From positions 48,399 to 68,398 of the forward strand of contig JYFJ02001842.1 of the NCBI GenBank assembly GCA_000934665.2: a stretch of DNA of 20,000 bases. The letters run 5' to 3'. A program made the position numbers and the translations under genes. The DNA comes from Catajapyx aquilonaris. Lineage: Eukaryota. The notes below the pieces were generated by a model that was given only the letters and a program-made list of their open reading frames with translations, was not told the origin of the DNA and did not search any database. Shown in pieces: positions 1 through 20,000 of the stretch (the stretch's first letter is position 1; each line of letters begins with the position of its first letter).

Positions 1-3000
1 TCCCTCCTATACATGATTCATTACTGACCCCCTCCGCGCAGTATATTTGGAACCTATCGCCTAATTTCGTGGTTGTCCATTAACCTAATCGTGTTTCCGA
101 TCGTACTGATGTGCACTTGCTCATGTAAGTGCCCTCGTTATGATCTGTCCGTAAACGTGAGCGGCGATTTCCGAGTCTTAATGCGGGTTAAATTCTTCGC
201 CGTAGCTTGTTGCCAGGGAAAAGGCCTCTCCTAAATTTAGGTTGAGTGATGGCTATTGGGTGATGATAAGCTGCGGGAAACTCAGAAGCGTTTCGTCTTG
301 TTGGTTTTACGACGGACCATGAGTCATGTGCGAAATGGGTGGGGCATGCAGCAGTTCCAGTAGCAAAATCCAGGTCACTTGTGCATGGTGGAGTTGAACA
401 GATTACACCCGGATTAGACCCATAATCATGACCAAGATTAGAGATAACGTCCCCAAATCATAAGGGATTCTGCACAGTTACTCTTTTGACAATTCGCAAG
501 CGTTTGCCATCAATATTGTCAGGTGTCTAAATCATACATTTGCTCAAGCCGGCTGGAGCTCTCAGTCGTAAAATATTCAAGGTTTGTAGCTGGCTTTACC
601 CGGAAGCAAGCCGTGAATCCGGAAGAGAATCAGTGTAAGAGGCCAGTTCAAGTACCCATTAGTGTATTGAATCCCCATGTCTGAATGTAACTTGGTGTGT
701 TGAGAATACGCCTGATTGGAATGCCGCGTTGCAAGCCATTTAAGACCAACAGGATGAGATATATAGACTATACGGTATGGAAATGAGGGCCTCTCGACTC
801 CAGATGCGTCGATAATCAGCTCGATCTATTCTTTAATTAGGATTGTTGCTCCGATATTAATGCAGGTGGTTGAGAAAGCTCGGCTGCAGCCTTAAGTTGG
901 CATATGCTGCAGTGGGACTGCATACTGCAGAGGCGAGAGAATGTGGATAGTAACCCAATCGATCTTACAAGAAAGTTTTAAAAAGGTTTAGGTGGACCTG
1001 CTGAGGTACGTTTGAGTCACGTGAAGAGGTGACATATCCGGATACCAAGGAACAAAACACAGCCGTATTTTGGAACCGAAGTTGGGTTCACAAAGCTATG
1101 GATTAAAACTAGTTTTTTTTGTGCGACCTGCCTCAACTATTTTGCGGAGTTTCTGTCCGTGTCGCGACAGTTTTTTTATTGTCAAAAGTTAACGTGGTGA
1201 CTTTAAGCCCTCCGGTGGCATTTTTAAAGTTGGCCTTTTCACCTGGAGGCTGAGATAAAGTGGTGCAGAACGTGAGGGATTTCAGGTTCTGTCATGTCCC
1301 ATGGGACACGTTTTGGTGTCTGCCAACTTTAGAGCCGGAGTATTTGCGGGGACCTAGTCTTTCGGACACTCCTTGATCCTCATTTAGTGCAGATATAGCC
1401 GGAAAAGGTCGTGGATGTTTGCATTTAGTCGCGGAGGTACAGGTCACTAGAGAAAATTTGCAGAGCTGGTTGCGTTGTGAGCGATTATAGTGCAAAGAAG
1501 AGGGGGGGGGGGGAACTTGTGACGTAATTGTAGTCGGTGTATATGTATTGCCCGGAAACTCAAACAGTCGCAGATTTTTTTTTCCAGGCTTCTCATTGTG
1601 ATAAAGCAGCGATAACATCGTTTGGCGTGCTAATTCCTGAGGCATTAGAGATTTAATCTGTACAGGAACTTGGGCTAACAGGAAACGAAGCTATTCGTAA
1701 TGAAGAATCCGAAGTACTTCGTGACGAAAAGCTGTAAACCGAACTGTTAATTTGGCACGAAAGGCTTTGCGTATCCATTTATACAGCAGTTTTGGAACGA
1801 GATTGACGAATCGGATCTATTTTAACGCTGTCGTGTAAGCCAAGGGTATTTCTGGATGCAAATAGTACACCTTGTTTATCAGAAAGTGTATAAGGAAAAT
1901 ATTGCTTGGTATGAGAAATCATAATCGGATAGTAGCATTTTTTGTGATATTTTATTCCTTGGCTCTCAGCAAAGTCCTCATTATTGCAGGAGTAAAACAA
2001 TACTTGCACAAATGAACCCGAAAAAGATGGAATTGCCTTACGACATGGATTCCAACACTAACGAACTTCATTAGTAAAGCTTGTCTGGGATTGTTGGACT
2101 AGGAGCGAGAGTGGGCAATGCTTCTTTGGCTAATGCGATGGGGGCGAAGAATACTTCAGGCGGAGTTTTAACCATGAAAAATGGAACCGAATTAGGGAAT
2201 GGTGGTAGTTGACCCCAAACGCCAGGTTCATTTCTAATTCTGGGATCGATTCCGAGTTCTATATTTGGTACAGCCACTTGTTCCAAAGAGGCGGATCTTT
2301 GGACGTCAGGCCACAGCACATCATTCAAGTGTTGCAAAGAATCAGTTTGATATCAGATTCCATGCGGTATCTGTACAGTATTAGCTCCACTGCACAGTTG
2401 TTGAGGTTTGCCTGCAGCAGTTGTGTCGTCACCAGTTTAGTTATCGGCGATTTTGTATGTCGAACACGTACTATCCGACATCCGGTGGACATGCCTTTTG
2501 CTTAATCTGATTGCAAGAAATTCCAAGTAATTTACGACACACGATTTCCACTTTTTATTTGGCGCAGGTGTAGTCGCTTTCCCAGCCGCATCAAAGACTC
2601 CCATTAAAAATTAAGCTTTACTTCTTTTTAGTCACCAATCTGACATGACACCGATGACCAATAAGAAATTTAAAGGGCCAAAAGGGGGAATGTGAAGATT
2701 TATACTTCTTCCGTCAAATATGCTGTTCACTCACCCGTGACTGCGAATTACTCAGACACGTACACACACCGTACAGATTAGATGAAGTTGAGTGGGTTTG
2801 TTAGATTCCGTATCATTCGCGATGTAAGTTCGGAAGGATGCGGACCTGTGTAGGCGTGCTGTACCGTTCAGAGTATATCCGCTAACCGACCGGAATTCCG
2901 ACCTGGTTCTTCGCTCACGGCCATGGGATAGCATGGAACATCTCTGGGGTTGATCATTCTCCCAGAGCGATCTCGGGGGGAGATTGGAAATGTTTTGGTA

Positions 3001-3218
3001 TACCCGGACCGTGTAGTTTATAACGTGTCTTCTGATTCAATCCCGGCGGCATCGATTCGGCGTTGCAGCGCGGTGTAATTGGTCTCTGGCGGCATGGGCA
3101 ATGCATTTCCAATTCTAAGCATCGCCATTAGCACCTGTGCAGGGGTTTAATAGCCTCCGCTGCATTTCCTTAGTGTTGATACAAGTGCCTACCGAGTGAT
3201 GCGGGTGTAGCCGACAAC

Positions 3219-3876
3219 ATGGGGTTGACGGAGAGCACAGTGGACAAATCCCCGTCGCATGGGGTCAACAGCCCCGCGCCCAAGTCCAAGTCCAACCTGG
3301 CTGTGCACTACCTGCTGGGGGCCCTTCCGCCTATGCCCCAGCCCAAGGGCGGGCGAGGGCCGGCCCCGGGGCAGCACCAGCACGCGCCGCCCAAGAGGAG
3401 GGACACGGTGCCCATCTTCCAGAAGCCGGACAATAAGCCCAACAGGCTAGTGAAAGGACTGACCGACTCGGACATCCGTAACTCGAACACCTTGCTGCCA
3501 AATTTCCATCCGACGGACAGTGTGGACAATAAGCGTCCTCAGAAGCAGCAGCACCAGTCCAGATGGGCCAAGAAGGAGCCGAAGCCGAACAAGAGCAGCA
3601 TCGCCACTCAGACCACGTTGAACGGTTACCATCGAAGACCTGCCTCGACAGGACCGATCATGGAGGACGCGACAGTGTCGCTGGTCGACGGGAATGACGA
3701 TCACATGCTTGGAGGCGAGTTCACGGGGAAAGTGCTGATGCTGTCCAACTCCATATTTTCGTTCCAAAAAGTGCGGAGGAACCCAAAGGACAAGCGGAAA
3801 AGGAACTATTCCGTTCCTGTGGACCCATTCACCTCCGATGCTGCCAAGATTGCCGGTGCCTCGCTCCACTCAGCAG
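3219..3876 (+). CDS. Probable (alternative) first coding exon of the RASSF gene: 219-aa disordered N-terminus MGLTES...ASLHSA
   Basis: GC-rich ORF with CAAC-ATG-G start context. Donor CAG|GTAGGA after 3876 is phase 1 and joins the 10296 exon in frame (G|AC TGC = Asp-Cys). Composition turns intron-like soon after the donor. Joined to the shared exons it gives about 558 aa. Confidence 0.75.
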
Positions 3877-6800
3877 GTAGGACTCAAGGACTTGCTTTGG
3901 GGACCACTCTGCATGTCCTCACAAAGGTGGAGGGTTCACCGACTTATCCTATACACACACCCCCAAAGGACACTGCCCAATTCTCTTTATAAATATTGAT
4001 CAGGTAGACTGTAGAGTAGTATCTCCATCGCTTTTTATGACGAAGAAACAGTGCATGGCAGACACAATTTTTGGGGGAGAAGGGACGTAGTGTATATTTG
4101 TCAGTTGCAGTGCCGCAGAACAACTAGTTTATTCGTGGAAAAAAGGGAAGTAATTTGGTCCCTCTTGGCATGGAGACTTGCTGCTATGGGAGCAACCATT
4201 TCATAATTCATGGTTGTGTGTTCACAAGGGTACGATCCTGGCTTGCGTCGGAGGGGAAGAGAAACGCAATGAATATCCATCGCGTTGCGTGCATTATGAA
4301 TGGAATATACGCTTCACTTTTCCACCCGATTTTCCCATACGGGCCAGGTGATTGCACTAATATTGTGCACCCTTCCCCCATGATTCAGGCTCACCAACTT
4401 GATTACTAACAAGCGCATTTGTGTGTAATAGTGCAACTTAAATAATGAAATGTTAGAACGAAGATGTTGGGGAAGACGTTCAATCACAGATGATGGCTAT
4501 TCCGAGCCCGGATTTTTTTGTAAGTTTTCTGATGACAATTGATCAATAGACCATCCTCCTCGTTCTTCCAATCCATATTAGGACCCAGCCAAGTTTGAAG
4601 TATAGATGATTAAAAATATGAAGACTCTCTCTAAGAGGACTAGTCTCTGGAGGAGGGATAAAAAGGGTTTGGGGGAGGGGGGGGGGGAAGCTCAGGGTAT
4701 CATGTCAGATGATTCATTATTTTGTGATAGGAATGGCAGTAGTATGAGTTTTATCGCAATACTTCATTTGAGGCTGAAGAGAGGATGAGTGACACGTCTC
4801 GGAGAGACCAATTATTGGTCGGGAGAAAAGTCTGTCTATTCCAGTTATGAATTATAGCTGTACCTGAATCTGCACTCAGCGCCGCAATGAGAATTCCGCA
4901 GTGAGAACTGTCGAGTATAGTGCCAGAAACTTCACACGGGAAACCTGATAGTCCCATTATTATTGCAAAATTATCAGAGTCAGGAAGGGAATGGTTATTC
5001 CGTCGATTCGAAGAAGCCTGTTGGAGTGTAGGCGGCGCTGCGCTGTAGGTGCGAAAATAGAGTAGTGTTGCAAGTTCTGTGATAATGACCCAGCCACGCA
5101 CAAGAATTTAATCAGCCTGTTTATACTTGCTACACGTGGCAATCTTATAGCCTTCGCATGGTTGAATTGAGTGTTACGACGTGTTGACAATTTCGCAACC
5201 CACGTGTAGGCGTCTGGGCCTATTCACAAAGCCGTAAAACGAAGTTGACAGACTGCGTATAATAAATTTTGCGGATGCAAATTCGGAATGGGAAACTGCT
5301 GTCGACAGCACAGAATAGTTGAGAGAACCATTCTTGCACGTAAACAATGGCATATCCTTGAAACGACGGTGCCATGCATACATCCAGCACGTTGCGTCCT
5401 TCGATGGTCAGGTCGCTCGTTGCTGATGGTGGTGGCAGAAGAGGCTGAGGGGGGAGAGACGTTCTCGAATGCTAATGGTGTCCCACATCTCCATGAAGAA
5501 TTGAAGAGAGCTGAGGGAGCGTGAAATTTTTATTGTGTACACCCGCATTCTAGTTGTTCTCCTGCAGGTGAAGCAGGAAAAGGCAAGCGTGTCGAAGTGG
5601 GAAGCAAGGAGAAAATTTCCCAATGAAAATGGCGTGGGAAGGAATAAATTGGTTTCCGCGCTGCCAGCCATAGCAAAAATAGGCCTTGGTGCAGCTGAAG
5701 TAAAGGCCTTTTGACTGGATTGTTTTGAGCCTGTCAGAAAGCTGCGAAAAAGCAAAAAAAAAGGGGCGAATTGTTTACAGCTATTTCGATGCTACGATAC
5801 GGGCCGTAATTACACGCTTTTAGCACGCTATTCAGCGCAAAAAGGATATATTTTGGTTTTATGCAAGTTATTTGGCGAAATGGTGTCCGGAGGCATCCGG
5901 ATTTCCGTCGAATTGGCCACTTGAAAAAGGTGCCACAGTTCACGAACCGAATAAGTGTTCTTGAAAGGCGTGGCTTTCGACCTAGTTTGTCTGAAATATT
6001 TGCAATTACGGCGACCCCTAACACTGCTGGATGCTGGGAGGTCCCTTAATGTGTCCAATATCGGCAAAAGTGAGGCGTCGGAGAGCGTTAATTCATTCAG
6101 GGAAAGTCGCGCTCCTGCCAAGAATTTTCATCGGATGAAAAGTGTAATTATGAATATCGGATTCCGTAGCCAAGTTGCAGGATTCGAGCGAGAATTGTTC
6201 CTTTATTCACTTGCACATGTTTGTCAGGTTTTGGCAAGTGGACCGGTATGTTCCCGTGTCTATTTCTGCCCTCCAGTTCTTTTGAGACAGGGTGCGCGAT
6301 ATGCAGAAGAGTTGCCGCCAAGACAGATCCGTGCAGTCTTGGAGAGGCTTCAAGGGTGCCGGATATTTGGTTGAACGTGCTCCGGAGAAGAAAAAGGCCC
6401 GGAGGCACCGGAATCGGGCGCAATTAGCGAGTTGCTGGCCAGTTCCACTAATTGCTTTTGGTGATGCCCCAGGTTGAATGGGGAGGCTCCAGCAGGAGTG
6501 AAGTGTAGCGCACAATAGAAATCGTGCTGGATTGGCCCTGAGAGATGGAGGAAGAGCCATCATCCAGCAGCGGAAATAAGGGGACAGGAATCCATCGGTC
6601 GTCCGTACTTTTGAAGCTGAGCAAGCCGACCACTTCCATATACCTTTCGTATTCCCCGAAGGAGAAGTGTTTCCGTGTGGCCTTCATCGTGTTAGGTGTG
6701 TGTTTGCATCCTGCAGAGTCGCATGCCTTACCCTGGCCTTTTAGCAGTTTGACACCAGTTTGCATAGTCTGCATAGCATAGAAATGGCTCTCCTAATGCG

Positions 6801-7028
6801 GGGGACTCTTGCTCAGTGCGCTGGAAAGTGATGTACTACAGTAGGTCAGGTTCGTGCGCAGTGTCACAGAGAGCTACAGAGTAATCAAACTGATTTAAGA
6901 CCTGTTTGCAAAGGGGCTGCTGCTGCTTGGAGGGACGTCACTGAATGATTGCTGCTGGGAACTTGGAAGGTTACGTCGGTTGAGTAAGTGCGTGACCGTA
7001 ATGGTATTGGGGAGGGTAATGCGGTAAT

Positions 7029-7071
7029 ATGGCCCTAATGAACCCGGGAGGGCGTAAGCTTATTAGAGAAG
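7029..7071 (+). CDS. Candidate short alternative first exon (MALMNPGGRKLIRE), phase 1
   Basis: AAT-ATG-G start, in-frame TAA upstream at 7017, consensus donor AAG|GTGAGT, in frame with the 10296 acceptor. Confidence 0.4.
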
Positions 7072-10000
7072 GTGAGTCCCTGGTTCCCGTTAAACTGATT
7101 TAATCCGGTATGAGATATAAGCACGTTGCGAGGTTCTTCACGTTTCGTCGCAGAGTACGGAGCTTTCAGGCAGGATATTGGTGCATGATTCTGGAGGTAG
7201 AACTAATACTGTATCGAGTGTGTTTTTGGATTGTCTGTGTAGCGAACGGCTCTGCATTATTTATTATGAAAAGGGATCATAAAATAATTAAAGCAGCAGT
7301 ATATAGAAAGACCACTGAAAATCACACCGGGTGTTGAATTATACAGGGTAGTGTCAAGCACATTCTCCTTCATTTCATATACAGTATATTGCACTAATTG
7401 CAGCTTACTAATCGTATGAGTAAACTATGAAACACTTTAGCCATAAAATTAAATGGCCTGTAGTAAGTTTAATAACTGGTTATATTGCCGTGATTTATTA
7501 GTTATTAGGTATTAGGGTCGTCAAAATTTATTATTCGTCTTTCACATTGAAGGTTTACAACCCGACAATAATTTGACGTCTACAAACTCTACATCGATGA
7601 GCTGTTTTTGTCACATCAAGAACTTTGTTCGTCAACGACATTTTTTGTTTCCATGTGTACCACAAAAATTGAAGATCTGTTCAAGTGAAAGTCCAAGTAC
7701 TTTTTGGTTAGAGACAACGTAAACTGAGCCCCCATTTTGGGCGGCGGTATTTTGTAGCTGCATCGTTTTCCGGAGAAAAGGGAGGAAAAGGTGCCTAACA
7801 CTTGAAAGATATACTCGTACTTTCCCAGGCTGTCGAATTTATGGCGACATTTCAGTGACCCGTTTCCCCATCCAATACAATAAATGCGTGCATCTCTGTA
7901 ATTGCTCTCGAGTAAATATAGCCTAGATCTGAAAGAGCTCGGAACAGGGCCTTCACTCTCGCTCGATTTTACGAGCAAGTAAACTCGGAATGGAGGTCTG
8001 GATTTTCTCGAATTTAATTGCAGCAGAGCTTGTTGACGGTGCGAATGCAGCTTTTCTGCGGATAGATCGTGATTGTGGTGTCTCTTGTCAATTATGACGA
8101 GGGGCGAGGGGAATCTATTGGCATATATAGCCTGCATAATGCCCGTATATTCACGGGGAGGATGGGATCATTGCTTCGTCCCAGGTAATCGACCGTAACG
8201 TAATACCTGCCTATTTTTGGTTCCGGATGTTTCCCAGAGGGATTACGTATAGAGCAGGTAGCATGGGTCTGATTTGCAAACGGTGTGAAGCTTTTTGCTC
8301 GCAGCAGACGTATATTTTCTTAGTGAAAAAACGACAGCGGGGAGAGAGAAAAGTTGACAGAAATAGCCGACGAGGAGCAGTGACCCATCTTACCGGTATA
8401 AGAAAAATGTCCAACAAATGTCTGACAAAACTTTGCTGGCGAGCCGGATCCTCCTTTTCAATTCGGGTGTAACGACGCTCGTTTCATTTGGACAAATCTC
8501 CCTCAAATGGCGGATACAGCAGGGCGCGTCTCTGTCTCCAAAAAAAAATAGAGAGGCTATCAAAGTTGTAATGATGTTGACCGCTGCACTCGACACTTGT
8601 AGTGCCTTTTATAGATCCGGCAATTGACGAAATTGTGTCTATTACATCACTCGTGCTGCAGGATGATCAGTGCATGGCGCCATTAACGGGCAGGTTGCAT
8701 TTAAAATATCTGGAGCTGGAAACTAGATCATATGAAACCAATCAGCTAAGCCTGATTGCTTTTCGTACTATAGCTTGCCACATGGCGGAGTTCATGCTTT
8801 AAGTTGATTACCTGCATACCAGCAGAGGAATGGTTCAACATGGTAGGAGTATGTTGATGTAACGTACACGGTTTGCTATACTTGGAAAGGGGGGGAAATC
8901 CGCTGTGTTTTTCTGTATATTTCTGATTCAATGTCATGTATTTGGTAACAGTTGGCATACGAAGGTCGACCTTGTAATGCGGGTTGGGAAATAGCTTAAC
9001 TCATCCATGATACTGATTTAAAATCAGTTCCTGATATTTGAAGCGGGAGTTTTCCTTTAAAGAGCGACGGGTACTGTACAGTATCGTGCAGTGGATAAGC
9101 TGCTGGTTTAGTAATATTTGCAAACTTAATAGCTGCCTTCCTCGTTCGGTTGCAGTGGAACTGTAGAGCAGTTTAGGCTGAAGGGTGGTGCAGAATTCAG
9201 AAGGCGGACTTGCCTTCATGCAATGCAATGAGTGTCTTTTCTATACGTTATGCACAACACTGTCGTCACTGCGACATTTCCACCGCTGCAGAAAGTTGGG
9301 ACGCACAAGCGGTGCCAGATAATTTGGAGGTTCCTAGGTTCCTCATTCACTGGAGTTAGGGAGACTCCGGGGAACAAATAACACGGCCTTGGTCGACTTG
9401 AAAATAATTATACATTGTGCAGTACCTACGCAGTCCCAGCCACTATCCAGCTGCTGGGTTCCGTCTGGTTATGTTCAGTCAATTGTCGTTATTGAATGTT
9501 TTATTCAGAAACATATGTGGCCACGATTCTCGTCCTGGCGTGCTGATCAGCACCAAGGCCACACCTTCGGTTTCACATATATAGGCTGCATTTCTGAATG
9601 CCGTTAATGGAATGCAGCATAATGTTGGCCAAACTGCTGCGTAGAGTGGCAAATATTATTATTTGTCAGCTGTACACTCTTGAAATGGGCGCAACTCTGG
9701 ATTATAACACATACCGTACTGATGAACAACAAAACGCGAAATCGATTCATATCTATAATTGGCCAAATCCGGTGCGTGATAGGTAAATAAACTATGAATA
9801 AATGATTGTGCGTTTTCAAACCGATCGCGATCCCAGCGGCAGCAGTTTCATTTTAAACACTCGGGTAAAATTGCAAAAGTCCCAAAAGTGTGGCTGATTT
9901 AATCTGGACTGATTCGCAAGGGGGGTTTCGAGCTGAAAAAGGTCTTGGGGAGCCCGAAACCAATCAGCATTCTGGAAACTTTTTCAATGGCCCGTGGCCA

Positions 10001-10295
10001 CCGGATGACACGGAAGAACATCTGTGGACAGGCCATCTTCCGGAAGAAAGCTCTCCGGATTTTCACTCGCTTAGGTAATTGCGAGTGGTCTCCGGAAACT
10101 CTGTGCAGTACTGCCTGCAGGAGACATTTTCCTTCTGCCAGACCTCATTTCCAGCGAACGTTTCCTTTTTCCCCATTATTTCCACCCACCCAAAGCTTGG
10201 CTTCGACTATATACTGAGCACTGGAAATGTGACCCACTCCAGGGAATTATGGTTGTGAGTTGACCTGATGGATGTATTTTTGTGTCTCTTTTCAG

Positions 10296-10495
10296 ACTGC
10301 AACTTCACGTGCCACCAGGGATGTCGACAGGCCGTGACCCTCGATTGCGAAAGTTTAGAGCAGAGGTCACCTAGCGATGCCTGTTGCTCCCATCCTGACC
10401 TGGCCTCGCTTCTTCCACCGGAGGGACATCAGGTGCAGGTCGAGGAGGTCACCGAGGCCCACCTAGAGGCGGAGATACAAGAGGTTCCTCCTTCG
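10296..10495 (+). CDS. RASSF1: RASSF exon: C-terminal half of the C1 zinc finger (CNFTCHQGCRQAVTLDC) plus acidic linker
   Basis: Pyrimidine tract and TTTCAG acceptor; peptide resembles RASSF1A CKFTCHYRCRALVCLDC. Likely donor TCG|GTGGGT, phase 0; in-frame alternatives follow 10432 and 10438. Symbol denotes the RASSF1/3/5 group. Confidence 0.85.
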
Positions 10496-11043
10496 GTGGG
10501 TCACTTTGTCTATATGCACCTGTCAAGTCGATCAAGTTGAAGGTTCAAATTAAAAATTAAATAGCAATTTAAAAACTGCTGTCGCGAGCAAGCTTTGCAT
10601 TTCCTTGCCAAAATTGCGCCAATTTGCATTCACGGAAGCGTGATGCACGTCTATTCTAATGGCTTTCGTTGACTGCCCTTCATTGTGGATGGGAGAGCAA
10701 TGTAATGCCCGGAAATGAGTCTATAACCGAATCCAGATCCAGTTTCCGGTTACCTGGTCCGACAGGTGCCATGTCACGTCACGTTTGCTGCTGTATCGGT
10801 CCGAGTTCGACGATCCGATCGGGTCATGCACCTTTGCAAAGCGCGCGCTCTCTATAGCCAAAGTATTAGTCATCGAGGCCTTCCCTATGATATGCGGAAA
10901 GGCTATTGGATAGTCTGCCTATCGACGGTTGGCTAGACCCCCCCGCTCCCATCAGAAACACGTCACACAAACTTATTGACCACACTGCAAACTAGATCGG
11001 ACCTTGCTCTTGCCACACATTCGATGGTTTCCTGCCGTCCAAC

Positions 11044-11136
11044 ATGGTGTTTCGAACTCTGCTATCGGTGTTCCAGCCTTGTATCTCCAGTCGATTCCCA
11101 GCCTTTCAGTGCTATCGGGACGAAAACGGGAATTTT
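11044..11136 (+). CDS. Candidate internal alternative first exon (MVFRTLLSVFQPCISSRFPAFQCYRDENGNF) for a C1-less isoform
   Basis: CAAC-ATG-G start; donor TTT|GTAAGC, phase 0; 78-nt intron to the phase-0 acceptor at 11214/11215. Confidence 0.5.
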
Positions 11137-11214
11137 GTAAGCGCGGGCAGGAGGGTATACTATAGAAGTGACACACTTTCGTCCCGAATGACATATTGTC
11201 CTTGCCATTTTCAG

Positions 11215-11325
11215 CCTGAAGAGGAGGAGAGTAAATCGGAGGATGTTGAGCCGGAAGGTCGTAACTTGGCCGTCCGAATCCAGTATTACAACAGCCATGC
11301 AGCTCATGGATTGGAGATGACTCTG
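11215..11325 (+). CDS. RASSF1: RASSF exon preceding the RA domain (PEEEESK...RIQYYNSHAAHGLEMTL)
   Basis: TTTTCAG acceptor and CTG|GTAGGT donor, phase 0/0. RIQYYNSHAAHGLEMTL aligns with RASSF1 KIKEYNAQINSNLFMSL. Confidence 0.85.
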
Positions 11326-11580
11326 GTAGGTGGTCTCCATTAGCCTGCATTGTCGTTCCAGTTGTAAATGCCCCCGATTTTTGTATGCATGAGACTCATT
11401 TCGGGGCCATTATTTTTTGACCGATCCGAAGGTTTCGTAATGCACCGTGTCGCAACGGAAGCATTAAATGAAGTTGTGGAGATTCCACCTAAATCGATGT
11501 GATCGATCTTTTGTGTATTATTGGACAACCTTGGCCTGTTAAACCACGCTAGAAAAATAATGTCAACCGCATTGTACCTG

Positions 11581-11760
11581 GTGACGTGCAATAAATGTGG
11601 TTGAAAAAAACCGCGATGACGGAAGTGTAACTTCCTGTCTGGCTGTTATCACCGGAACTGGAGTGGATATACCGCAAAGAAGGATCGCGGGGACCAACAT
11701 CCCGTAGTAAGTTGTTAGACGTCGAGAACTTTGACACGGCTTCGCACCGGGGTTGATTGG
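11581..11760 (+). promoter_or_regulatory. Putative internal promoter upstream of the 11826 candidate exon
   Basis: TGACGT at 11582, inverted ETS-like pair ACGGAAGTG (11619-11627) and ACTTCCTG (11630-11637), reverse CCAAT (ATTGG 11756-11760), CpG-rich. Motif evidence only. Confidence 0.3.
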
Positions 11761-11825
11761 AATATTAATCAGTTGGGTAGGATACGGGCATCGATTCGGG
11801 GGAACAAAAAGGTTTTGTAGGGACC

Positions 11826-11897
11826 ATGGCGACGGGTGTGGACGACGGGGTTTTGCAACGTCGGCTGCCGACCTTGCCCAAGGACTCCAAAGACAAA
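11826..11897 (+). CDS. Candidate internal alternative first exon (MATGVDDGVLQRRLPTLPKDSKDK) for an RA+SARAH-only isoform
   Basis: ACC-ATG-G Kozak; donor AAA|GTATGC (same intronic hexamer as the 12893 donor), phase 0, in frame with the 12703 exon. Confidence 0.5.
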
Positions 11898-12702
11898 GTA
11901 TGCTGGAAAATTGATTTAAGGGCGGACGTCATCTGCTGGTTATGCCACCCACTGTAGTTTTAGGTGTTCCTCTGGGGGCGTCTGGGCAGGACCGTGTGAT
12001 TCTAGGGAGGTCCTTGCGAATCATTAAATTGTGGGTATCGGGTGGGTGCTGTAGCACCTTGAGCGGCAGCCAGAAGCCTGGTAGAATGTATTTGGTGTGC
12101 GGGGGGAATGAGGGCAATTGGATTTTAGCTCGTGGCCGAGGCGATGTAATTGCATCTAGTATTTTGCGCGTGTATGTGCAGTCGGCTCGAGTGAAATTCT
12201 TGCTTGCTCACCAGAGTAACACATATCCACACAAAAATTTCAGTGTAACCTAGATCATTTTTTTGGGCAGGCTCCCAATTCAGAGTAATTGGCCTCCTTT
12301 TTTAAATGTTGGGTTCCGTATTTTTGTTGGCCTGATGGAAAGGTGGGCCTATGTGGTATTTTTTTTAATGTATGTGTTTGATGGAGCGGCGAGTTCGCGT
12401 GTGGGGAAGTTGACTCGGCCCGGACATATACCTAGAGGGAATTGCCGACTATTTCTGGTGCTTGTGTGGAAAGGAGGTCGATGTGTATCACTGCACACCA
12501 ACCACTCTCATCTAACGCCAATAAAACCAGCCCTTTACCATGCTGGACTATATAATAGCAGTTTAAATTTTATTAATGTGCACTTAAATCAAAGGAGAAC
12601 CGGAATGTATGGGCATGAAATTCAGGGAAATAATATTATACCTGTTAGCGGTTATTTGTTACCCTTAAATTATGGTGATTAAAATTTTCCATCAACTTAC
12701 AG

Positions 12703-12893
12703 GAAGCAGATGGAACTACATTCCGTGGCTTCATTCGGGTGCACCTGAACTTGACCAGACCAATCAACGTGGTTGCAGGGACCCGCCCCCCTTCAATTTA
12801 TGACATCTTGAAGGAAGATGACACTCTGGAGAAGAAGACTCTCACCACCTTCTACCTGCCAAGGGACACAGTCAGAGCACTACATGTCACCAG
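12703..12893 (+). CDS. RASSF1: RASSF exon: start of the RA domain (EADGTTFRGFIRVHLNLTRPINV...FYLPRDTVRALHVT)
   Basis: Resembles RASSF1/5 DGSYTGFIKVQLKLVRPVSV...FYLPKD; TACAG acceptor and AG|GTATGC donor, phase 0/2. Confidence 0.93.
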
Positions 12894-12971
12894 GTATGCC
12901 AGAAGTGGATGCAAGCAGATAGGTGAAACCAATAGGTTGTTCACTAACCTGATTGGTGTTTGTAAGAAATA

Positions 12972-13286
12972 CAGTAGAACCCCGATTATCCGTCACCTAC
13001 GGGACTGGGGCATTGTTGGAGAACAGAAACGGTCGGATAATCCGAAGAGCAAAGGAAAACACAACAAAAAGCATATAAAATCATGAAATAATGCACAATA
13101 TTACGCTTATGAGCTTTTCTAAGAAATAGTGAAGGATTTATCTTTTACGTTCACACTCTGGTGTTTAAAATTTAACTAAGGCAATACAAAACAAATGATT
13201 AGTAGGCCTGCATTACAGTATTTAATGAGCAAAGATGCATTTATTGCTGGAGTGGGACTGTCAGATAAATGGGGTTCTATCTACTG
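12972..13286. mobile_element. Tc1/mariner-pogo (Tigger-like) non-autonomous element (MITE), about 315 bp
   Basis: TA|CAGTAGAACCCCGATTATCCG at the left end; degenerate inverted copy CAGATAAATGGGGTTCTA(TCTA)CTG at the right; right-hand TA not intact. Confidence 0.7.
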
Positions 13287-13681: not shown

Positions 13682-14151
13682 CAGTGGCGGATTTACGCAT
13701 GTGCGGAGTGTGCGGCCGCACAAGGCCCAACGGAAAATGGGGGCCCAACGACGCGGACGTAAAAAGTAAATAAATAATAAAATAAATAAAAATGCCGGCC
13801 AAGGTGGATTGCCCGTGCAAAGGAGATATTATTTTGTTAAGGTGAATTTGGTGGATAGCAAAAATCGTAATATTTGAATATGTCCAATCGAATGCTACTG
13901 ACACAACAAATGAAGATCTGCACGCCACATAAATGCCGCATTACCCATCCCAAAACACCCCAGCTCGCCTATAAGCTTGTGTGACCTTGAACCCCAAAAA
14001 ACTATGTTCTGGGATTTTTTTTGACAGTTAGGGACTTTTTCCCTGTACATTTAGGGATAACCTCATCGTTGGGTCTGGCAACACTGGATCACATGACAGG
14101 GGGCCTCACCGATTTTTGCACAGGGCCCCAGGAAGGGAAAATCCGCCCCTG
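13682..14151. mobile_element. hAT-superfamily MITE, 470 bp
   Basis: TIRs CAGTGGCGGATTT / AAATCCGCCCCTG (12/13 match); perfect 8-bp TSD CATCTTAG at 13674-13681 and 14152-14159; subterminal GGGCCC-type motifs. Confidence 0.9.
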
Positions 14152-14387: not shown

Positions 14388-14503
14388 TGAAACCACGGCT
14401 CAAGAAGTGATTCGATCTCTGCTCAAGAAGTTCAAGGTGGTTGACAACCCAAGGAAGTTTGCTCTCTATGAGAGATACTATGATCATGGGGAGACCACAA
14501 AAG
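14388..14503 (+). CDS. RASSF1: RASSF exon: RA domain (ETTAQEVIRSLLKKFKVVDNPRKFALYE)
   Basis: Resembles RASSF1 EVIEALLRKFLVVDDPRKFALFE; GGCAG acceptor and AAG|GTAATG donor, phase 2/1. Confidence 0.93.
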
Positions 14504-14584: not shown

Positions 14585-14703
14585 TGAAGATGCGTCTAAT
14601 TGCGGACAATGAGAGGCCCTTGATTCTTGCTCTGCTGTGGGGATGTGAACAGAACTGCAACAAGCGGTTCGTCCTGCAGGAAAACGAAACTGGGGACATA
14701 TTG
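14585..14703 (+). CDS. RASSF1: RASSF exon: end of the RA domain (VKMRLIADNERPLILALLWG...FVLQENETGDIL)
   Basis: FVLQENETG resembles RASSF FVLKENETG/FVLKENDSG; TTCCAG acceptor and TTG|GTGAGT donor, phase 1/0. Confidence 0.9.
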
Positions 14704-15411: not shown

Positions 15412-15693
15412 TGGGAAGCGTTCACCCTTCCAGAACTGAACAACTTCCTAAAAATTCTGGACCGTGAGGAGGAGGAATACAAGCGACAGGTGCGTCAAAA
15501 GTACAAGCTGATGGAACTGAAGATCAGGGAGGCAATGGAAAGGCTGTGTCCAGCACAGGGAGACGAAGCAGCATCGCAAGATCTTGTGACCCTTCGCCCC
15601 AAAGGGGCGGCTGTTGCTGCCTGCTATCCACAGAGGGAGTCATCTGTTGATGAGGACGACTCAGATGGCACTCTTAAGAGTTTGGCTACATGA
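15412..15693 (+). CDS. RASSF1: RASSF terminal exon: SARAH domain (WEAFTLPELNNFLKILDREEEEY...) plus C-terminal tail; stop TGA
   Basis: Resembles the RASSF1 SARAH start WDAFSMPELHNFLRILQREEEEH; TTGCAG acceptor, phase 0. Confidence 0.93.
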   Translation, partial: WEAFTLPELNNFLKILDREEEEYKRQVRQKYKLMELKIREAMERLCPAQGDEAASQDLVTLRPKGAAVAACYPQRESSVDEDDSDGTLKSLAT

Positions 15694-17189
15694 GGGCAGT
15701 AGTTAAATAATATTGAGCAGGGAATCATTCACTGGAGGTACCATGTTTTTTTTTGTAAAAGTTCACCAAGCAATAGGAAGTACGAATAAGGGTTGAAAGG
15801 TGCAGACTGGTAGTTAGCTGCATGTTTTGCTGGCAAGAATCTCGAATTGGTTACGTCTAGTCAGTTTTTGGAGTGGTCTTAGAGTGAGCTCCCAGTTGCT
15901 TTAACGTTTCTTTCATGTGTATTTCAGACGGGTGAATAACTTGTAGTTTTATACACCATCAGGAGTCTTTCTGTTGTTGCTTCAAGGTAGGGATTTTCTA
16001 GGCTCGCAGGAAGAACCAGGATCTGTTTTTTAACCCTCATCATGCAGACATTTCTAGACTAAAAGTAGTCTGTAGCAAAATAAGACAGAAAAAAAGAAAA
16101 AGGCTGATGATATTTTGTGAAGCGGAAGTTTTAACCATTTAGGAGCCCTTTGCAGAACTTTCCTTCTGTCGGGCCAGATATGTCCCAAGAAGAAGTTCTC
16201 ATCAAATCCATGTGTTACACAACAATCCTGAGGAATATTAAAAACTAGAGGCCTTAACTTAGTGCACTTGCAGAATCTTGAAGACTACAAGCCAGTAATA
16301 CAGTACATCACTCAGCCGTTTCAGTGAAACACCCGTGGTAATCTACATGCAAAGCAAGGTAGCACTTGAATACTGTAACTTTTTGTGATTATGTAATTTT
16401 TTAAAAAGTCTCCGTCTTTAGTACCGGCACCTATACTGCCATAATTGATAGTTGGGCTAGTTGAAGTAAATATGTTAAGCGTAAGTGGAAGAAAGAAAAT
16501 GTACAACCCAAGATTTTGTGTGACTAATTTATTAAGATGCAAAACGTGTTCCTCCATCTCAAGTTTTGAGTTAGTTTGTAGTGGGAAGGTTGGTTTAATC
16601 CTTGAAACGTTGTGCCAAATGCGGCGTAATATTGTCTCGCGTTAAAGGAGTTTTTGGAAAAGGTTCCAAAGAAGTGGTTTCAACATGCCCACCAAATGGC
16701 TCTGCGCAACAATTCCCTCTTTTTTTTAAATAGTACAAAACTACAAGTTGTATGCACAAGGGAGCTGTAAAACTGGTCTGTTGGGGCATGTGCATTTTGA
16801 ATATTAATGTGGTTTGTAACCTTTTGAATGAGGGCTGACAGGTTGACCTGTCATTTAGGACATGTATAGTTTGTACAGGAAACATGAAGTAAAGTACTTG
16901 ATCCTCTTTGATTGCAGTTATCTTTAATGGTAAACAGTTCAAGTCCAGGTTTGTATATTGAGGTATGCTCAGGTATGCTGTATTAGTACTATTAGAGATG
17001 GGACTATCGATATATATCGCACTTCCATATATCGATAGTATTGGATATCGATGGCTCAAAATCTTTTTCTTTACAGAGCCAACTGTACTCATCAAATGGC
17101 ATGATTTGTAGTAGTTTCAAACTACACAAAATTAGATTATTTTTAAATCAGTATCAGTACAATTCATTTGAATGTTTAATGAGTTTTAC

Positions 17190-17745
17190 ATTCAGTATGT
17201 CATAATTTAATGGGCATGAAATTATTGTCATACTGTATACATCAATGATAGAATATAACCTGTTTCACATGTGCATTATGCAAATGTGAAGTTTTTCTAA
17301 GTTTTATGCACTTATTTCCCCACAGTCATGAATAATGAAAGCAAAGTGAATTGATATATTCTTAGTTTCACCATTAGCTCTTGGTTTCACAGGAGAAAGA
17401 GATGATCATGCTCTTAGTCACCAGGTGGTAAATCAACATTTCTCTTATTTACGATGCAAAATAGCAGTAGTTTTAAGTGGGCTACAATTAATGAAAAAAT
17501 GTCTTTGTCATATTTGGATGTCCTATATTTGGACGAGTCTACTTTCAATGTATTCATTTTGTTATACTGTATAATCAGTACATATAATTTAATAAGCTAG
17601 AAATTATTGATTTTTATCTTTTACAATCTAATCCTGTCTCACATGTGCATTATGCAAATGTGAAGTTTTAGCAAATTTGGTTTTACCACTGTGAATAATG
17701 GAACCAAATTGCATGATCCTTATTATTTGTTCACTGGAGGAACGT
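17190..17745. repeat. Degenerate direct duplication, offset about 374 bp, with a 31-bp identical core
   Basis: TCACATGTGCATTATGCAAATGTGAAGTTTT at 17265-17295 and 17639-17669; patchy flanking matches (ATAATTTAAT, GAAATTATTG, TGAATAATG). Outer limits are approximate. Confidence 0.7.
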
Positions 17746-17925
17746 AGGTCTAAAATTCGGAGTTGCTAGTTGGTTACTCACTCTCAGTATTTATCTTGCC
17801 CTATTGTATTTGGAAATCAGTAACAGAGAGGCCTACAATTTACTAATGAGACATCAGCAATTTGTGTGGGGTGTTTTAATTCCAGAAAATCCATTTCTTT
17901 TTAATATGTTGATGTTATTGAGATA

Positions 17926-18206: not shown

Positions 18207-18330
18207 GACCATGGTTTAAACCACATATTTTTATGAAAAAAGAAGCACTAGGCCACTAGCTTCTCAAGACCTGATGTGTCGAAATGTAGACTGTGTGTGT
18301 GGTGTGGAGTTAAGCCCCTATTCCATGGCC

Positions 18331-19091
18331 AAGTACTTGTGCACAAGTGGGGGTGCGCACCTGCGCAGTTGCCCTCCCCCACCTTCCACCCTCGACTTGC
18401 GTAGAATTGAGGGCCTCTCAATTCAACCGCTCAAGTACTATCAGTCCACCAAGAATTGTCGCAGCGGCAGTGCACGAACTACAGTTACGAGCACTTCCAG
18501 GGGGAGAAGTCAATGGAGAAGTGCTCGTAGACTGTAGTTCTTGCGCTGCCGCTGCGATAATTCTTGGTGGACTGATAGTACCAATCAGGTTGAGGCAGGG
18601 GGAACCCTCCTACCAATCACAAAAGAAACATTTCCAAGCTTCTCTCTTGACCATGAAAACCTGGGATATGACACCATGACACTATGGCAGTAGACAGTGT
18701 GCCACCAGAAAGCCCAACAGATACGCCGATTGCATGCAATTCTCACTTACGGTACTCCACTTTTATCATTTTGCGCAACTGTACAAGATTTACCAGCAGC
18801 TTTTGGTGGTGGCTCCAGCCTGAAAATACTCCATAAGGTGCCTAGAACTAGGGGAGAAAATAAAATTGCTTTTAACACGAGTGCATAATTCTGTCAAAAC
18901 TTTGAATTAAGCCACCAGACTATTTAAGACGGTCCATTTCAAGCCAGACCATGGTCTTATGCCAGAGGATTCAAGCAGGAGAGGACTCGTGCCATCTTGG
19001 ACTTGTGTGGCTGCTTGGGTGGGCGCTTGAACATGGAATGGTTTTGAGCAAGTTGGCGCAGGCGCACACCCCCACTTGTGCACAAGTACTT
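18331..19091. repeat. 36-bp inverted repeat pair (18331-18366 / 19056-19091), probably MITE-derived
   Basis: 34/36 identity; each copy contains the palindrome ACTTGTGCACAAGT; no TSD resolved. Confidence 0.75.
18435..18581. repeat. Near-perfect fold-back hairpin (arms 18435-18497 and 18518-18581, 20-nt loop), likely a TA-flanked MITE
   Basis: Arms differ by 3 substitutions and 1 indel; TA|CTATCAGTCCACC...GGTGGACTGATAG|TA. Confidence 0.85.
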
Positions 19092-19221
19092 CCAGGCTTT
19101 ATGTGGAGTGATGACTTGGCGGGGTGCACTGCTGTGCACCTTGGTATCGCTGGGAGGCAATATTGATATATCGATACTTTGTTGAAAAGTCCCATCTCTA
19201 TGCTGTATGTACATCATCCTA

Positions 19222-19227: not shown

Positions 19228-19325
19228 ATTGCATATTTATATTATCATTATTATGTGCACTGTACAAAATGGAGGACAAATGCTCCAGCGAGTCTTTCAC
19301 AACACGAGACACTGACACTGCAGCT

Positions 19326-19391
19326 TCAGCCCTGGTAGAGAATTACAGGAAAGTCCACATGCAGTCGAGGGTGCTGGTACTTGACCATTCC
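19326..19391 (-). CDS. TUSC2: TUSC2/FUS1 homologue, last exon (GMVKYQHPRLHVDFPVILYQG*)
   Basis: Resembles the human TUSC2 C-terminus GIVKLDHPRIHVDFPVILYEV; TTTCAG acceptor, phase 0. Confidence 0.93.
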   Translation of the reverse strand, partial: GMVKYQHPRLHVDFPVILYQG

Positions 19392-19729
19392 CTGAAACAA
19401 GATCATTGATCATTAATTATCATTTAAGAATGTACATGTTGGATGAACGGTTAGATACCATCACGACAGTTCCCTATGAGGGGTAGTCAGCGATATGAAG
19501 GGAGACACAAGCTAACCCAACATATGAACTAAATTAAAACTTGTGAAAATAAAACTATAAACAACCCGTCCCACCCCTGCCCATCTCAGATGACAGACAC
19601 TGAATAATATTAAATTTAAATATTACACTACGCAATACGGTACTTCACCAATTGCAATTACTCTTAAGTGAGTCACCATACTCCAAGGTAAGTGCAACTG
19701 ACATTGACGTGAGTTCAATCATCAATCAC

Positions 19730-19847
19730 CTGTGGTCTGAGGTTGTCTGCCACCCTTCTCATGGTGGCCTTGCATCCTTTCCTGGGAGGCGGCGCTTCCT
19801 CGTAGAACTCGTGTGCCAGGTCTCCGTCCTCGTCAAAGTACATGGAC
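19730..19847 (-). CDS. TUSC2: TUSC2/FUS1 homologue, middle exon (SMYFDEDGDLAHEFYEE...RRVADNLRPQ)
   Basis: Family signature DEDGDLAHEFYEE; CCCCAG acceptor and CAG|GTGATT donor, phase 2/0. Confidence 0.95.
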
Positions 19848-19922
19848 CTGGGGGAAATGGGAGAGTGTGAGTGAATGAGCGTGGCCTGCTGGGCATCACA
19901 ACAACAGTGTATACGACCATAC

Positions 19923-20000
19923 CCGTTCCTATAGAGTACGAATGGGGTGCCCCTGGTGCGTGCCAGCGCCCTGGCCTCCGACTCCGTGGGGCAGCCCGAG
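19923..20000 (-). CDS. TUSC2: TUSC2/FUS1 homologue, upstream exon truncated by the window edge (...SEARALARTRGTPFVLYRNG)
   Basis: Resembles human ALVRPRGRAVPPFVFTRRG; donor GG|GTATGG, phase 2, completes Gly with the next exon. Confidence 0.88.

Follow-up and report, generated by a model that had tools for sequence, protein, structure and literature searches.

The DNA analyzed here is a 20,000-nucleotide (nt) stretch of Catajapyx aquilonaris contig JYFJ02001842.1 (positions 48,399 to 68,398, forward strand), hereafter “the window,” in whose own coordinates positions are given. It carries the shared exons of a gene that, judged by its sequence, is a single-copy arthropod scaffold of the RASSF1/3/5 type with C1, RA, and SARAH domains. 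At least three coding 5′ ends feed the shared acceptor at 10296: an upstream C1 exon, present in RNA contigs, and two exons conserved in arthropods, A and C. Exons A and C rest on conservation, and their junctions to 10296 in Catajapyx are predicted from sequence. We estimate a probability of about 75% that this is a single gene driven by a far-upstream promoter together with several internal promoters, with A and C feeding 10296. An initial annotation of the window had proposed an array of alternative first exons, comprising seven ATG-to-donor units (here labeled A to G; Table 1), for one constant RA-SARAH core. All seven have the coordinates, ATGs, GT donors, phases, and three AG acceptors that it gave, and its general picture of a gene with multiple starts stands; its list is in part incorrect, and only two of the seven listed peptides are conserved.

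Shared core and main transcript

A Pfam search of the shared exons detected the second half of a C1 domain, an RA domain, and a NORE1-type SARAH helix (Nore1-SARAH match on the last exon, E = 5.9e-15), which bears out the RA-SARAH core of the initial annotation. The solved structures closest to the core are those of RASSF5 (3DDC for RA; 4OH8 and 4LGD for SARAH, E = 1e-8), and the stretch of homologue P0008 that is homologous to exon 11215–11325 aligns with residues 11 to 33 of 3DDC. The RASSF1/3/5 features present are the NORE1-type SARAH domain, an alphaN helix and RA domain directly before SARAH, and C1 in the long form; the class assignment rests on these domains and on named hits (RASSF1- and RASSF5-like) in a comparison set without RASSF2/4/6 proteins. 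The top homologues, at most 84% identical, are RASSF1-like proteins from cockroaches, termites, and damselflies. One Nore1-SARAH match was found genome-wide (one of the five candidates scored), and the large intron region is single copy in the genome. Holometabolous insects were absent among 87 and the best 120 of 441 protein homologues listed, and this branch of the RASSF family may have been lost in flies and their kin. Among the matches listed, the named insect homologues were all from cockroaches, termites, damselflies, or a mayfly.

RNA evidence comes from the one run found (X1), which is shallow and of unrecorded kind. Its contigs are spliced and are identical to the window across the listed exon pieces. 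All six core exons are linked in the main contig (2,860 nt, depth of 21). Ahead of 10296, this contig has a loose end that corresponds to the last letters of the upstream C1 exon, from which this acceptor is thus entered. That exon ends in AGAA. The main form of the gene, derived from this far-upstream exon, carries a whole C1 zinc finger. The X1 depth is zero in 1–2668 and 4003–10005.

Exons A and C

Exon A is almost certainly real. Its acceptor at 3174 is pyrimidine-rich, and an in-frame stop (3177–3179) lies between the acceptor and the ATG. X1 contigs cover the exon at 3170–3613 and 3631–3872 (depth of 3.5 to 3.9, no other letters), that is, to within 4 nt of both predicted ends. The match starts at 3170, four letters (TTAG) ahead of the acceptor, and 42 contig letters upstream of 3170 were not placed on the window. 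TTAG ahead of A does not match the AGAA at the end of the C1 exon, so some exon other than the C1 exon is joined to A. The initial annotation counted A as a first exon. It appears instead to be an internal, ATG-bearing exon, probably the second one behind a non-coding leader, since it has its own upstream acceptor and unplaced contig letters ahead of it. A search for the leader exon returned three upstream donors ending in TTAG, none of them convincing.

Conservation of A extends across insects and crustaceans. A start of the form MG[LS][TSA]ES was found in 10 of 167 RASSF-type proteins; all 10 are without the first C1 half, and at the junction all have the Asp expected from phase 1. Four further members of the A-type cluster bring the total to 11 named species: two termites, a cockroach, a damselfly, five decapods, a stomatopod, and an ostracod. 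When a profile of a second conserved block was built from five insect A-type exons, position 3717 ranked first among the 45,050 windows of the 68-kb contig, with a score of 33.6 compared to 17.0 for the next. Termite contig L008 carries A at 3109–3433, with an acceptor 40 nt before the ATG, an in-frame stop between them, and a phase-1 donor. All 13 A-type starts tested, including that of the window, fit a PROSITE-type myristoylation pattern (Met-Gly start, small residue at position 6). Since a basic cluster also follows the second block, A is most likely a membrane anchor. In decapod and stomatopod A-type forms (P0052, P0055, P0057, P0062, P0063, and P0293), N-termini of 1,100 to 1,270 residues lie behind the same six-residue start.

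Exon C is, by conservation, very likely real as well. From 6590 onward, it is 54 to 62% identical to N-termini of proteins from termites, cockroaches, and barnacles (tblastn E = 9e-12 to 2e-10 against P0001, P0099, and P0119). The C-type peptide is present in eight fetched proteins: P0099 (termite), P0189 (cockroach), P0001 (Logan), and the barnacle-type P0119, P0187, P0188, P0190, and P0191. Five of the nine hits of one search were C-type; the other four (P0184, P0185, P0186, and P0192) were excluded as unrelated repeat proteins. On a Logan contig, P0001 reads as a single open frame that continues from C into the core, which would imply a spliced transcript. Six termite-like metagenome contigs (L008 to L013, from eight loci returned; L014 and L015 were excluded as weak matches) carry C preceded by an in-frame stop and followed by a phase-1 donor. 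Two of these six, which differ little from each other, have A as well, 5 kb upstream. In L008, A is followed by C (8143–8248), so that the order seen in the window is kept, with both exons in phase 1. The termite C has a second, internal phase-1 donor (L008:8143–8182), which matches the Cryptotermes model P0102.

Exon C is single copy in the genome and has no pyrimidine-rich acceptor within 200 nt. An AlphaFold2 model of P0189 (C plus half-C1; eight sequences) reached a predicted local distance difference test score of 41, with only a hairpin at residues 15 to 35. An ESM Atlas search with residues 1 to 55 gave a C1-like lead (0.89) that the query's own half-C1 residues can account for.

The observed/expected CpG ratio is 0.89 in a domain that begins 5 kb before the window and extends to 11900, compared to 0.48 and 0.52 in the flanks. 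An unmethylated regulatory domain within a methylated gene body is an established pattern in arthropods. The CpG-rich domain fits such a regulatory domain, an indirect sign of internal promoters. A scan for core-promoter motifs was uninformative.

Taken as a mechanism, the reading we favor is as follows. The far promoter would produce the main form with its whole C1 zinc finger, while internal starts in the large intron would splice in phase 1 to 10296, swapping the first C1 half for another N-terminus. A would be reached via a non-coding leader exon and would supply a glycine-2 myristoylation-type start with a later basic cluster; C would supply a 35-residue, strand-rich peptide. Both forms would lose an intact C1 and keep the alphaN-RA GTPase-binding domain and the Hippo/MST-binding SARAH helix. 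The initially proposed constant core would hold for forms entering at 10296, but entry at 12703 would lose the alphaN exon of RA; a form starting from G, if G exists, would lack exon 11215–11325 and become a SARAH-only competitor. The likely purpose would be to change the position of the scaffold: the lipid anchor of A would tether it to membranes, and the A form would hold the Hippo kinase there without C1 or GTPase recruitment. In a more far-reaching version, a set of C1-breaking internal starts would have been kept since the insect-crustacean ancestor, with A as a constitutive membrane Hippo/MST scaffold that needs no GTPase, C as a conserved strand-rich module, and three to six more short tags added in Catajapyx, together forming a tissue-specific code for the place at which Hippo kinase is held. 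We regard this version as tentative, with the odds clearly against it.

Several observations weigh against internal promoters feeding 10296 through A and C. RNA evidence is limited to one run, and among the X1 joints listed (26 loose ends aside), none leads from A, C, or another of the units into a shared acceptor; the only 5′ exon whose junction into 10296 these joints include is the upstream C1 exon. The exon A contig ends 4 nt before the donor. C lacks a conserved start codon: its start lies 15 codons later in termites and earlier in barnacles. Decapod A-type N-termini (>1,000 amino acids) share the first residues only, so the basis for common descent with decapod A is a six-residue motif plus the splice slot. 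Many of the A and C homologues are automatic gene models. Last, the CpG richness may merely mark a large unmethylated intron, and values of 0.6 to 0.9 also occur in the far-upstream part of the contig.

Other candidate units and competing explanations

In all seven units, the frame stays open across the shared exons as far as the stop at 15693. Position −3 is a purine and position +4 is G in six of them, and only E (9987) has T at −3, so the initial description of mostly good start contexts was accurate. Donor strengths (Table 1), scored with an approximate metazoan matrix, can be compared to the 6.0 to 8.8 bits of six main-transcript donors. Between 3880 and 10270, there are five strong phase-1 units, defined by a full start context and a donor of ≥4.9 bits: C, D, and three that the initial annotation had not listed (4170–4347, 4991–5048, and 7990–8038). 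Its list was also incomplete with respect to the acceptor at 3174 and the upstream coding exons outside the window. Shuffled sequences contained 0.79 such units on average and reached five in 1 of 300 cases. In 65 controls of real sequence, taken from the same contig in other windows, strands, and phases, the maximum was two, and none reached four. Since the intron is richer in strong phase-1 units than expected by chance, D and the three unlisted units are favored. One to three more short 5′ exons probably exist, the likeliest being 7029–7071. A unit like D appeared in 1 of 300 shuffles, and we lean toward considering it real. E, F, and G are each doubtful, and B is less likely still. F and G were matched by 6 and 23% of shuffles, respectively, and are near chance; C and D belong to the class that exceeds it.

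The explanation that survives best next to the favored one is that only three coding 5′ ends exist (the upstream C1 form, A, and C), the other units being due to chance; we consider it possible but distinctly the less probable. Conservation is indeed limited to A and C, and C was the only unit matched in a tblastx comparison with six termite contigs. No homologue was found in that comparison, or in tblastn with homologue N-termini, for B, D, E, F, G, or five extra units, and the start patterns of B, D, E, F, and G occurred in none of 144 core-bearing proteins. When candidates were compared to 37 alternative N-termini by shuffled local alignment, the best P value was 0.005 among 481 comparisons, as expected, and the best matches of E were at chance level. 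These homology tests are weak for peptides of 14 to 31 residues with no close relative in the comparison. The conservation check suggested in the initial annotation thus came out for A and C and, at low power for short peptides, not for the other five, which is half of what that annotation had named as refuting its proposal. Since tblastx also missed A, it has little power for short diverged exons, which speaks against reading its result as evidence for three ends only. Leaving C out, four strong phase-1 units remain, more than in any of the 65 controls, and no donor could score higher than that of D. X1 cover is zero for B, C, D, E, F, G, and the extra units; in a single shallow run, this carries no weight either way.

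The opposite explanation, that all or nearly all of the seven units are true first exons with promoters of their own feeding three acceptors, is improbable. It gains from the frame being kept in all seven, from the excess of phase-1 units, from F and G each being the best unit in its own intron, and from the CpG-rich domain ending just past G. Other arthropods, too, place alternative N-termini in the 12703 slot (P0101/P0135; decapods/amphipod). Against it stand the weak donor of B (3.1 bits), the near-chance status of F and G, the lack of homologues for B, D, E, F, and G (0 of 144 core-bearing proteins), and the upstream acceptor of A with its unplaced upstream letters. G, moreover, drops the alphaN exon needed for RAS binding in RASSF5 (bioRxiv 10.1101/2020.02.05.923433). 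The weakest explanation, that A and C are cassette exons truncating the long transcript or marking it for decay, draws on the acceptor and in-frame stop before the ATG of A, here and in termite, and is very improbable given the TTAG/AGAA mismatch that separates A from the C1 exon, the lack of a pyrimidine-rich acceptor within 200 nt of C, and the conservation as protein of the peptides after the ATGs.

Other observations concern the same units. B, with its MGNCC start, fails the myristoylation pattern; an MGxCC unit occurred in 2 of 300 shuffles, the pattern having been picked after B was seen. A strong acceptor at 5568, just downstream of B, opens a 44-codon phase-0 frame (5568–5699). The idea that E is a decayed first C1 half was ruled out, the true first half lying upstream. 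Elsewhere in arthropods, two more alternative N-termini that are conserved lead straight into the first RA exon, one in termite P0101 with mayfly P0135 and the other in decapods with an amphipod (P0030, P0032, P0127, P0130, and P0138; P0119 is listed alongside). The termite-mayfly N-terminus resembles a helix plus a strand and could replace alphaN. For neither was a counterpart found in the window, and the G peptide is unlike the N-termini that other arthropods place in the 12703 slot. Clustering of TGATTTAA (8 copies compared to 1.25 expected) was rejected: it ranked 11th among all 8-mers and failed correction.

Table 1. Gene features and candidate 5′ units in window coordinates, except where a contig position outside the window is given. 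Empty cells, no entry.
Feature	Position	Strand	Donor (bits)	Details
CpG-undepleted domain, window part	1–11900			~17 kb in all; holds all candidate 5′ exons
Further upstream coding exon	G000:C835:33475-33711			Outside window; placed by homologues
Upstream C1 exon, first C1 half	G000:C835:41809-41935			Outside window, ~6.5 kb upstream; C1_1 positions 1–31, E 1.3e-7
Exon A	3174–3876	+	8.6	Acceptor 3174; 45-nt leader; unit 3219–3876 from ATG 3219; 219 codons from MGLTES; phase-1 donor 3876
Exon A, second conserved block	3717–3788	+		Hydrophobic stretch, then basic cluster; profile from five insect A-type exons
Extra phase-1 candidate	4170–4347	+	8.1	Starts METCC; full start context; no homologue
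Extra phase-1 candidate	4991–5048	+	5.8	Full start context
Candidate B	5288–5339	+	3.1	Starts MGNCC; weak donor
Exon C, alternative coding 5′ exon	6545–6695	+	7.7	Conserved part 6590–6694; phase-1 donor
Candidate D	7029–7071	+	12.1	14 codons; best donor in intron; full start context
Extra phase-1 candidate	7990–8038	+	5.0	Full start context
Candidate E	9987–10074	+	7.4	Good donor; weak start context, T at −3
Shared exon, second C1 half and linker	10296–10495	+		Pfam C1_1 positions 33–51, E 0.039
Candidate F	11044–11136	+	4.2	Phase 0 into 11215 (slot keeping whole RA); best unit in its intron
Shared exon, alphaN helix region preceding RA	11215–11325	+		Joint seen in RNA contig
Candidate G	11826–11897	+	5.0	Phase 0 into 12703; best unit in its intron; edge of CpG-rich domain
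Shared exon, first RA part	12703–12893	+		Joint seen; RASSF5 3DDC E 1e-13
Shared exon, RA domain	14388–14503	+		Pfam RA E 8.6e-8; joints seen
Shared exon, RA end	14585–14703	+		Pfam RA E 0.0019; joints seen
Last exon, SARAH	15412–16907	+		Stop 15691–15693; 3′ untranslated region to at least 16907; contig cover

Genomic surroundings and relation to known RASSF genes

A spliced TUSC2 gene lies on the minus strand at 19250–20000, tail to tail with the RASSF gene; its exons are at 19731–19847 and from 19392 downward, with more past the contig end. TUSC2 thus adjoins the gene here and at the vertebrate RASSF1 locus, the two being adjacent at human 3p21.31 (PMC6678546). In Zootermopsis and Coptotermes, RASSF and TUSC2 are on separate records, so the linkage cannot be taken as general; a literature search for RASSF1-TUSC2 microsynteny found nothing. 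The upstream neighbor on the same strand (L004:3308-3934, equal to G000:C835:23308-23934) has a DAGK catalytic domain (E = 6e-27) and is presumably ceramide kinase–like or sphingosine kinase–like. A 432-codon frame on the minus strand (L002:1164-2459) has a weak Lig_chan match (E = 0.0024) and is possibly an ionotropic receptor. Dispersed repeats, 90 to 99% alike in many contigs, occupy 12969–13228, 13763–13793, 17200–17830, 18300–19100, and 19490–19610, and 18320–18370 recurs inverted near 19050–19100.

RASSF1B uses the acceptor of the half-C1 exon with a non-coding first exon. Human RASSF1A, 1B, and 1C are described as arising by differential use of promoters and first exons, with two promoter CpG islands and three first exons (PMC6678546). 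The C1-less Catajapyx forms differ from this in carrying long or conserved coding N-termini (219 and 35 to 50 residues) on the half-C1 exon, one of them with a myristoylation-type start. RASSF5/NORE1, whose RA and SARAH structures are the closest to ours, is reported to have three isoforms through differential promoter use, all of which bind MST1 (PMC6321366), and alphaN is described as essential for RAS binding by its RA domain (bioRxiv 10.1101/2020.02.05.923433). RASSF5 gets to the plasma membrane through lipidated RAS-family GTPases (PMC11316025), whereas form A would carry an anchor of its own. In contrast to tandem arrays of the Protocadherin or UGT1 type, the variable exons are not duplicates: no direct repeat longer than 21 nt was found in 1–13000, and the candidate peptides are unrelated.

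Drosophila dRASSF belongs to the RASSF2/4/6 branch and was not among the homologues listed. Like the protein considered here, it is a C-terminal RA-SARAH protein, acting on Hippo; it is described as the sole C-RASSF in fly and as a Hippo antagonist (PMC4929427). N-termini of A or C type at the same joining place are already present in RefSeq “isoform X3” models of Periplaneta, Cryptotermes, Zootermopsis, and Ischnura and in the GenBank models PNF42582.1, KAJ9583284.1, and KAF0310401.1, which are automatic annotations. In titles and abstract openings, with few subscription papers covered, no publication was found that treats these models as a conserved set or mentions the Gly2 motif. Nothing on a myristoylated RASSF turned up in passages from PMC3845702, PMC3191007, PMC3328371, PMC12933119, and PMC5867882. 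The arrangement itself is of a known kind, that of RASSF1A/B/C promoter use; what sets it apart is the conserved coding N-termini on the half-C1 acceptor, one of them with a Gly2 motif.

Promoter switching in mammalian RASSF1 and RASSF5 is well known, and RASSF5 activates Hippo once GTPases have brought it to the plasma membrane. Fly and mammalian data, as presented in PMC4929427, disagree on whether RASSF proteins activate or restrain Hippo. The reach of our finding is limited in that such isoforms were already present, unnoticed, in automatic annotations and that their function is predicted only. If the favored reading is true, half-C1 isoform switching would be old and would carry conserved protein information, in animals where this RASSF branch has hardly been studied, and a conserved lipid-anchored RASSF would provide a direct test of whether membrane position alone sets Hippo activation versus restraint.

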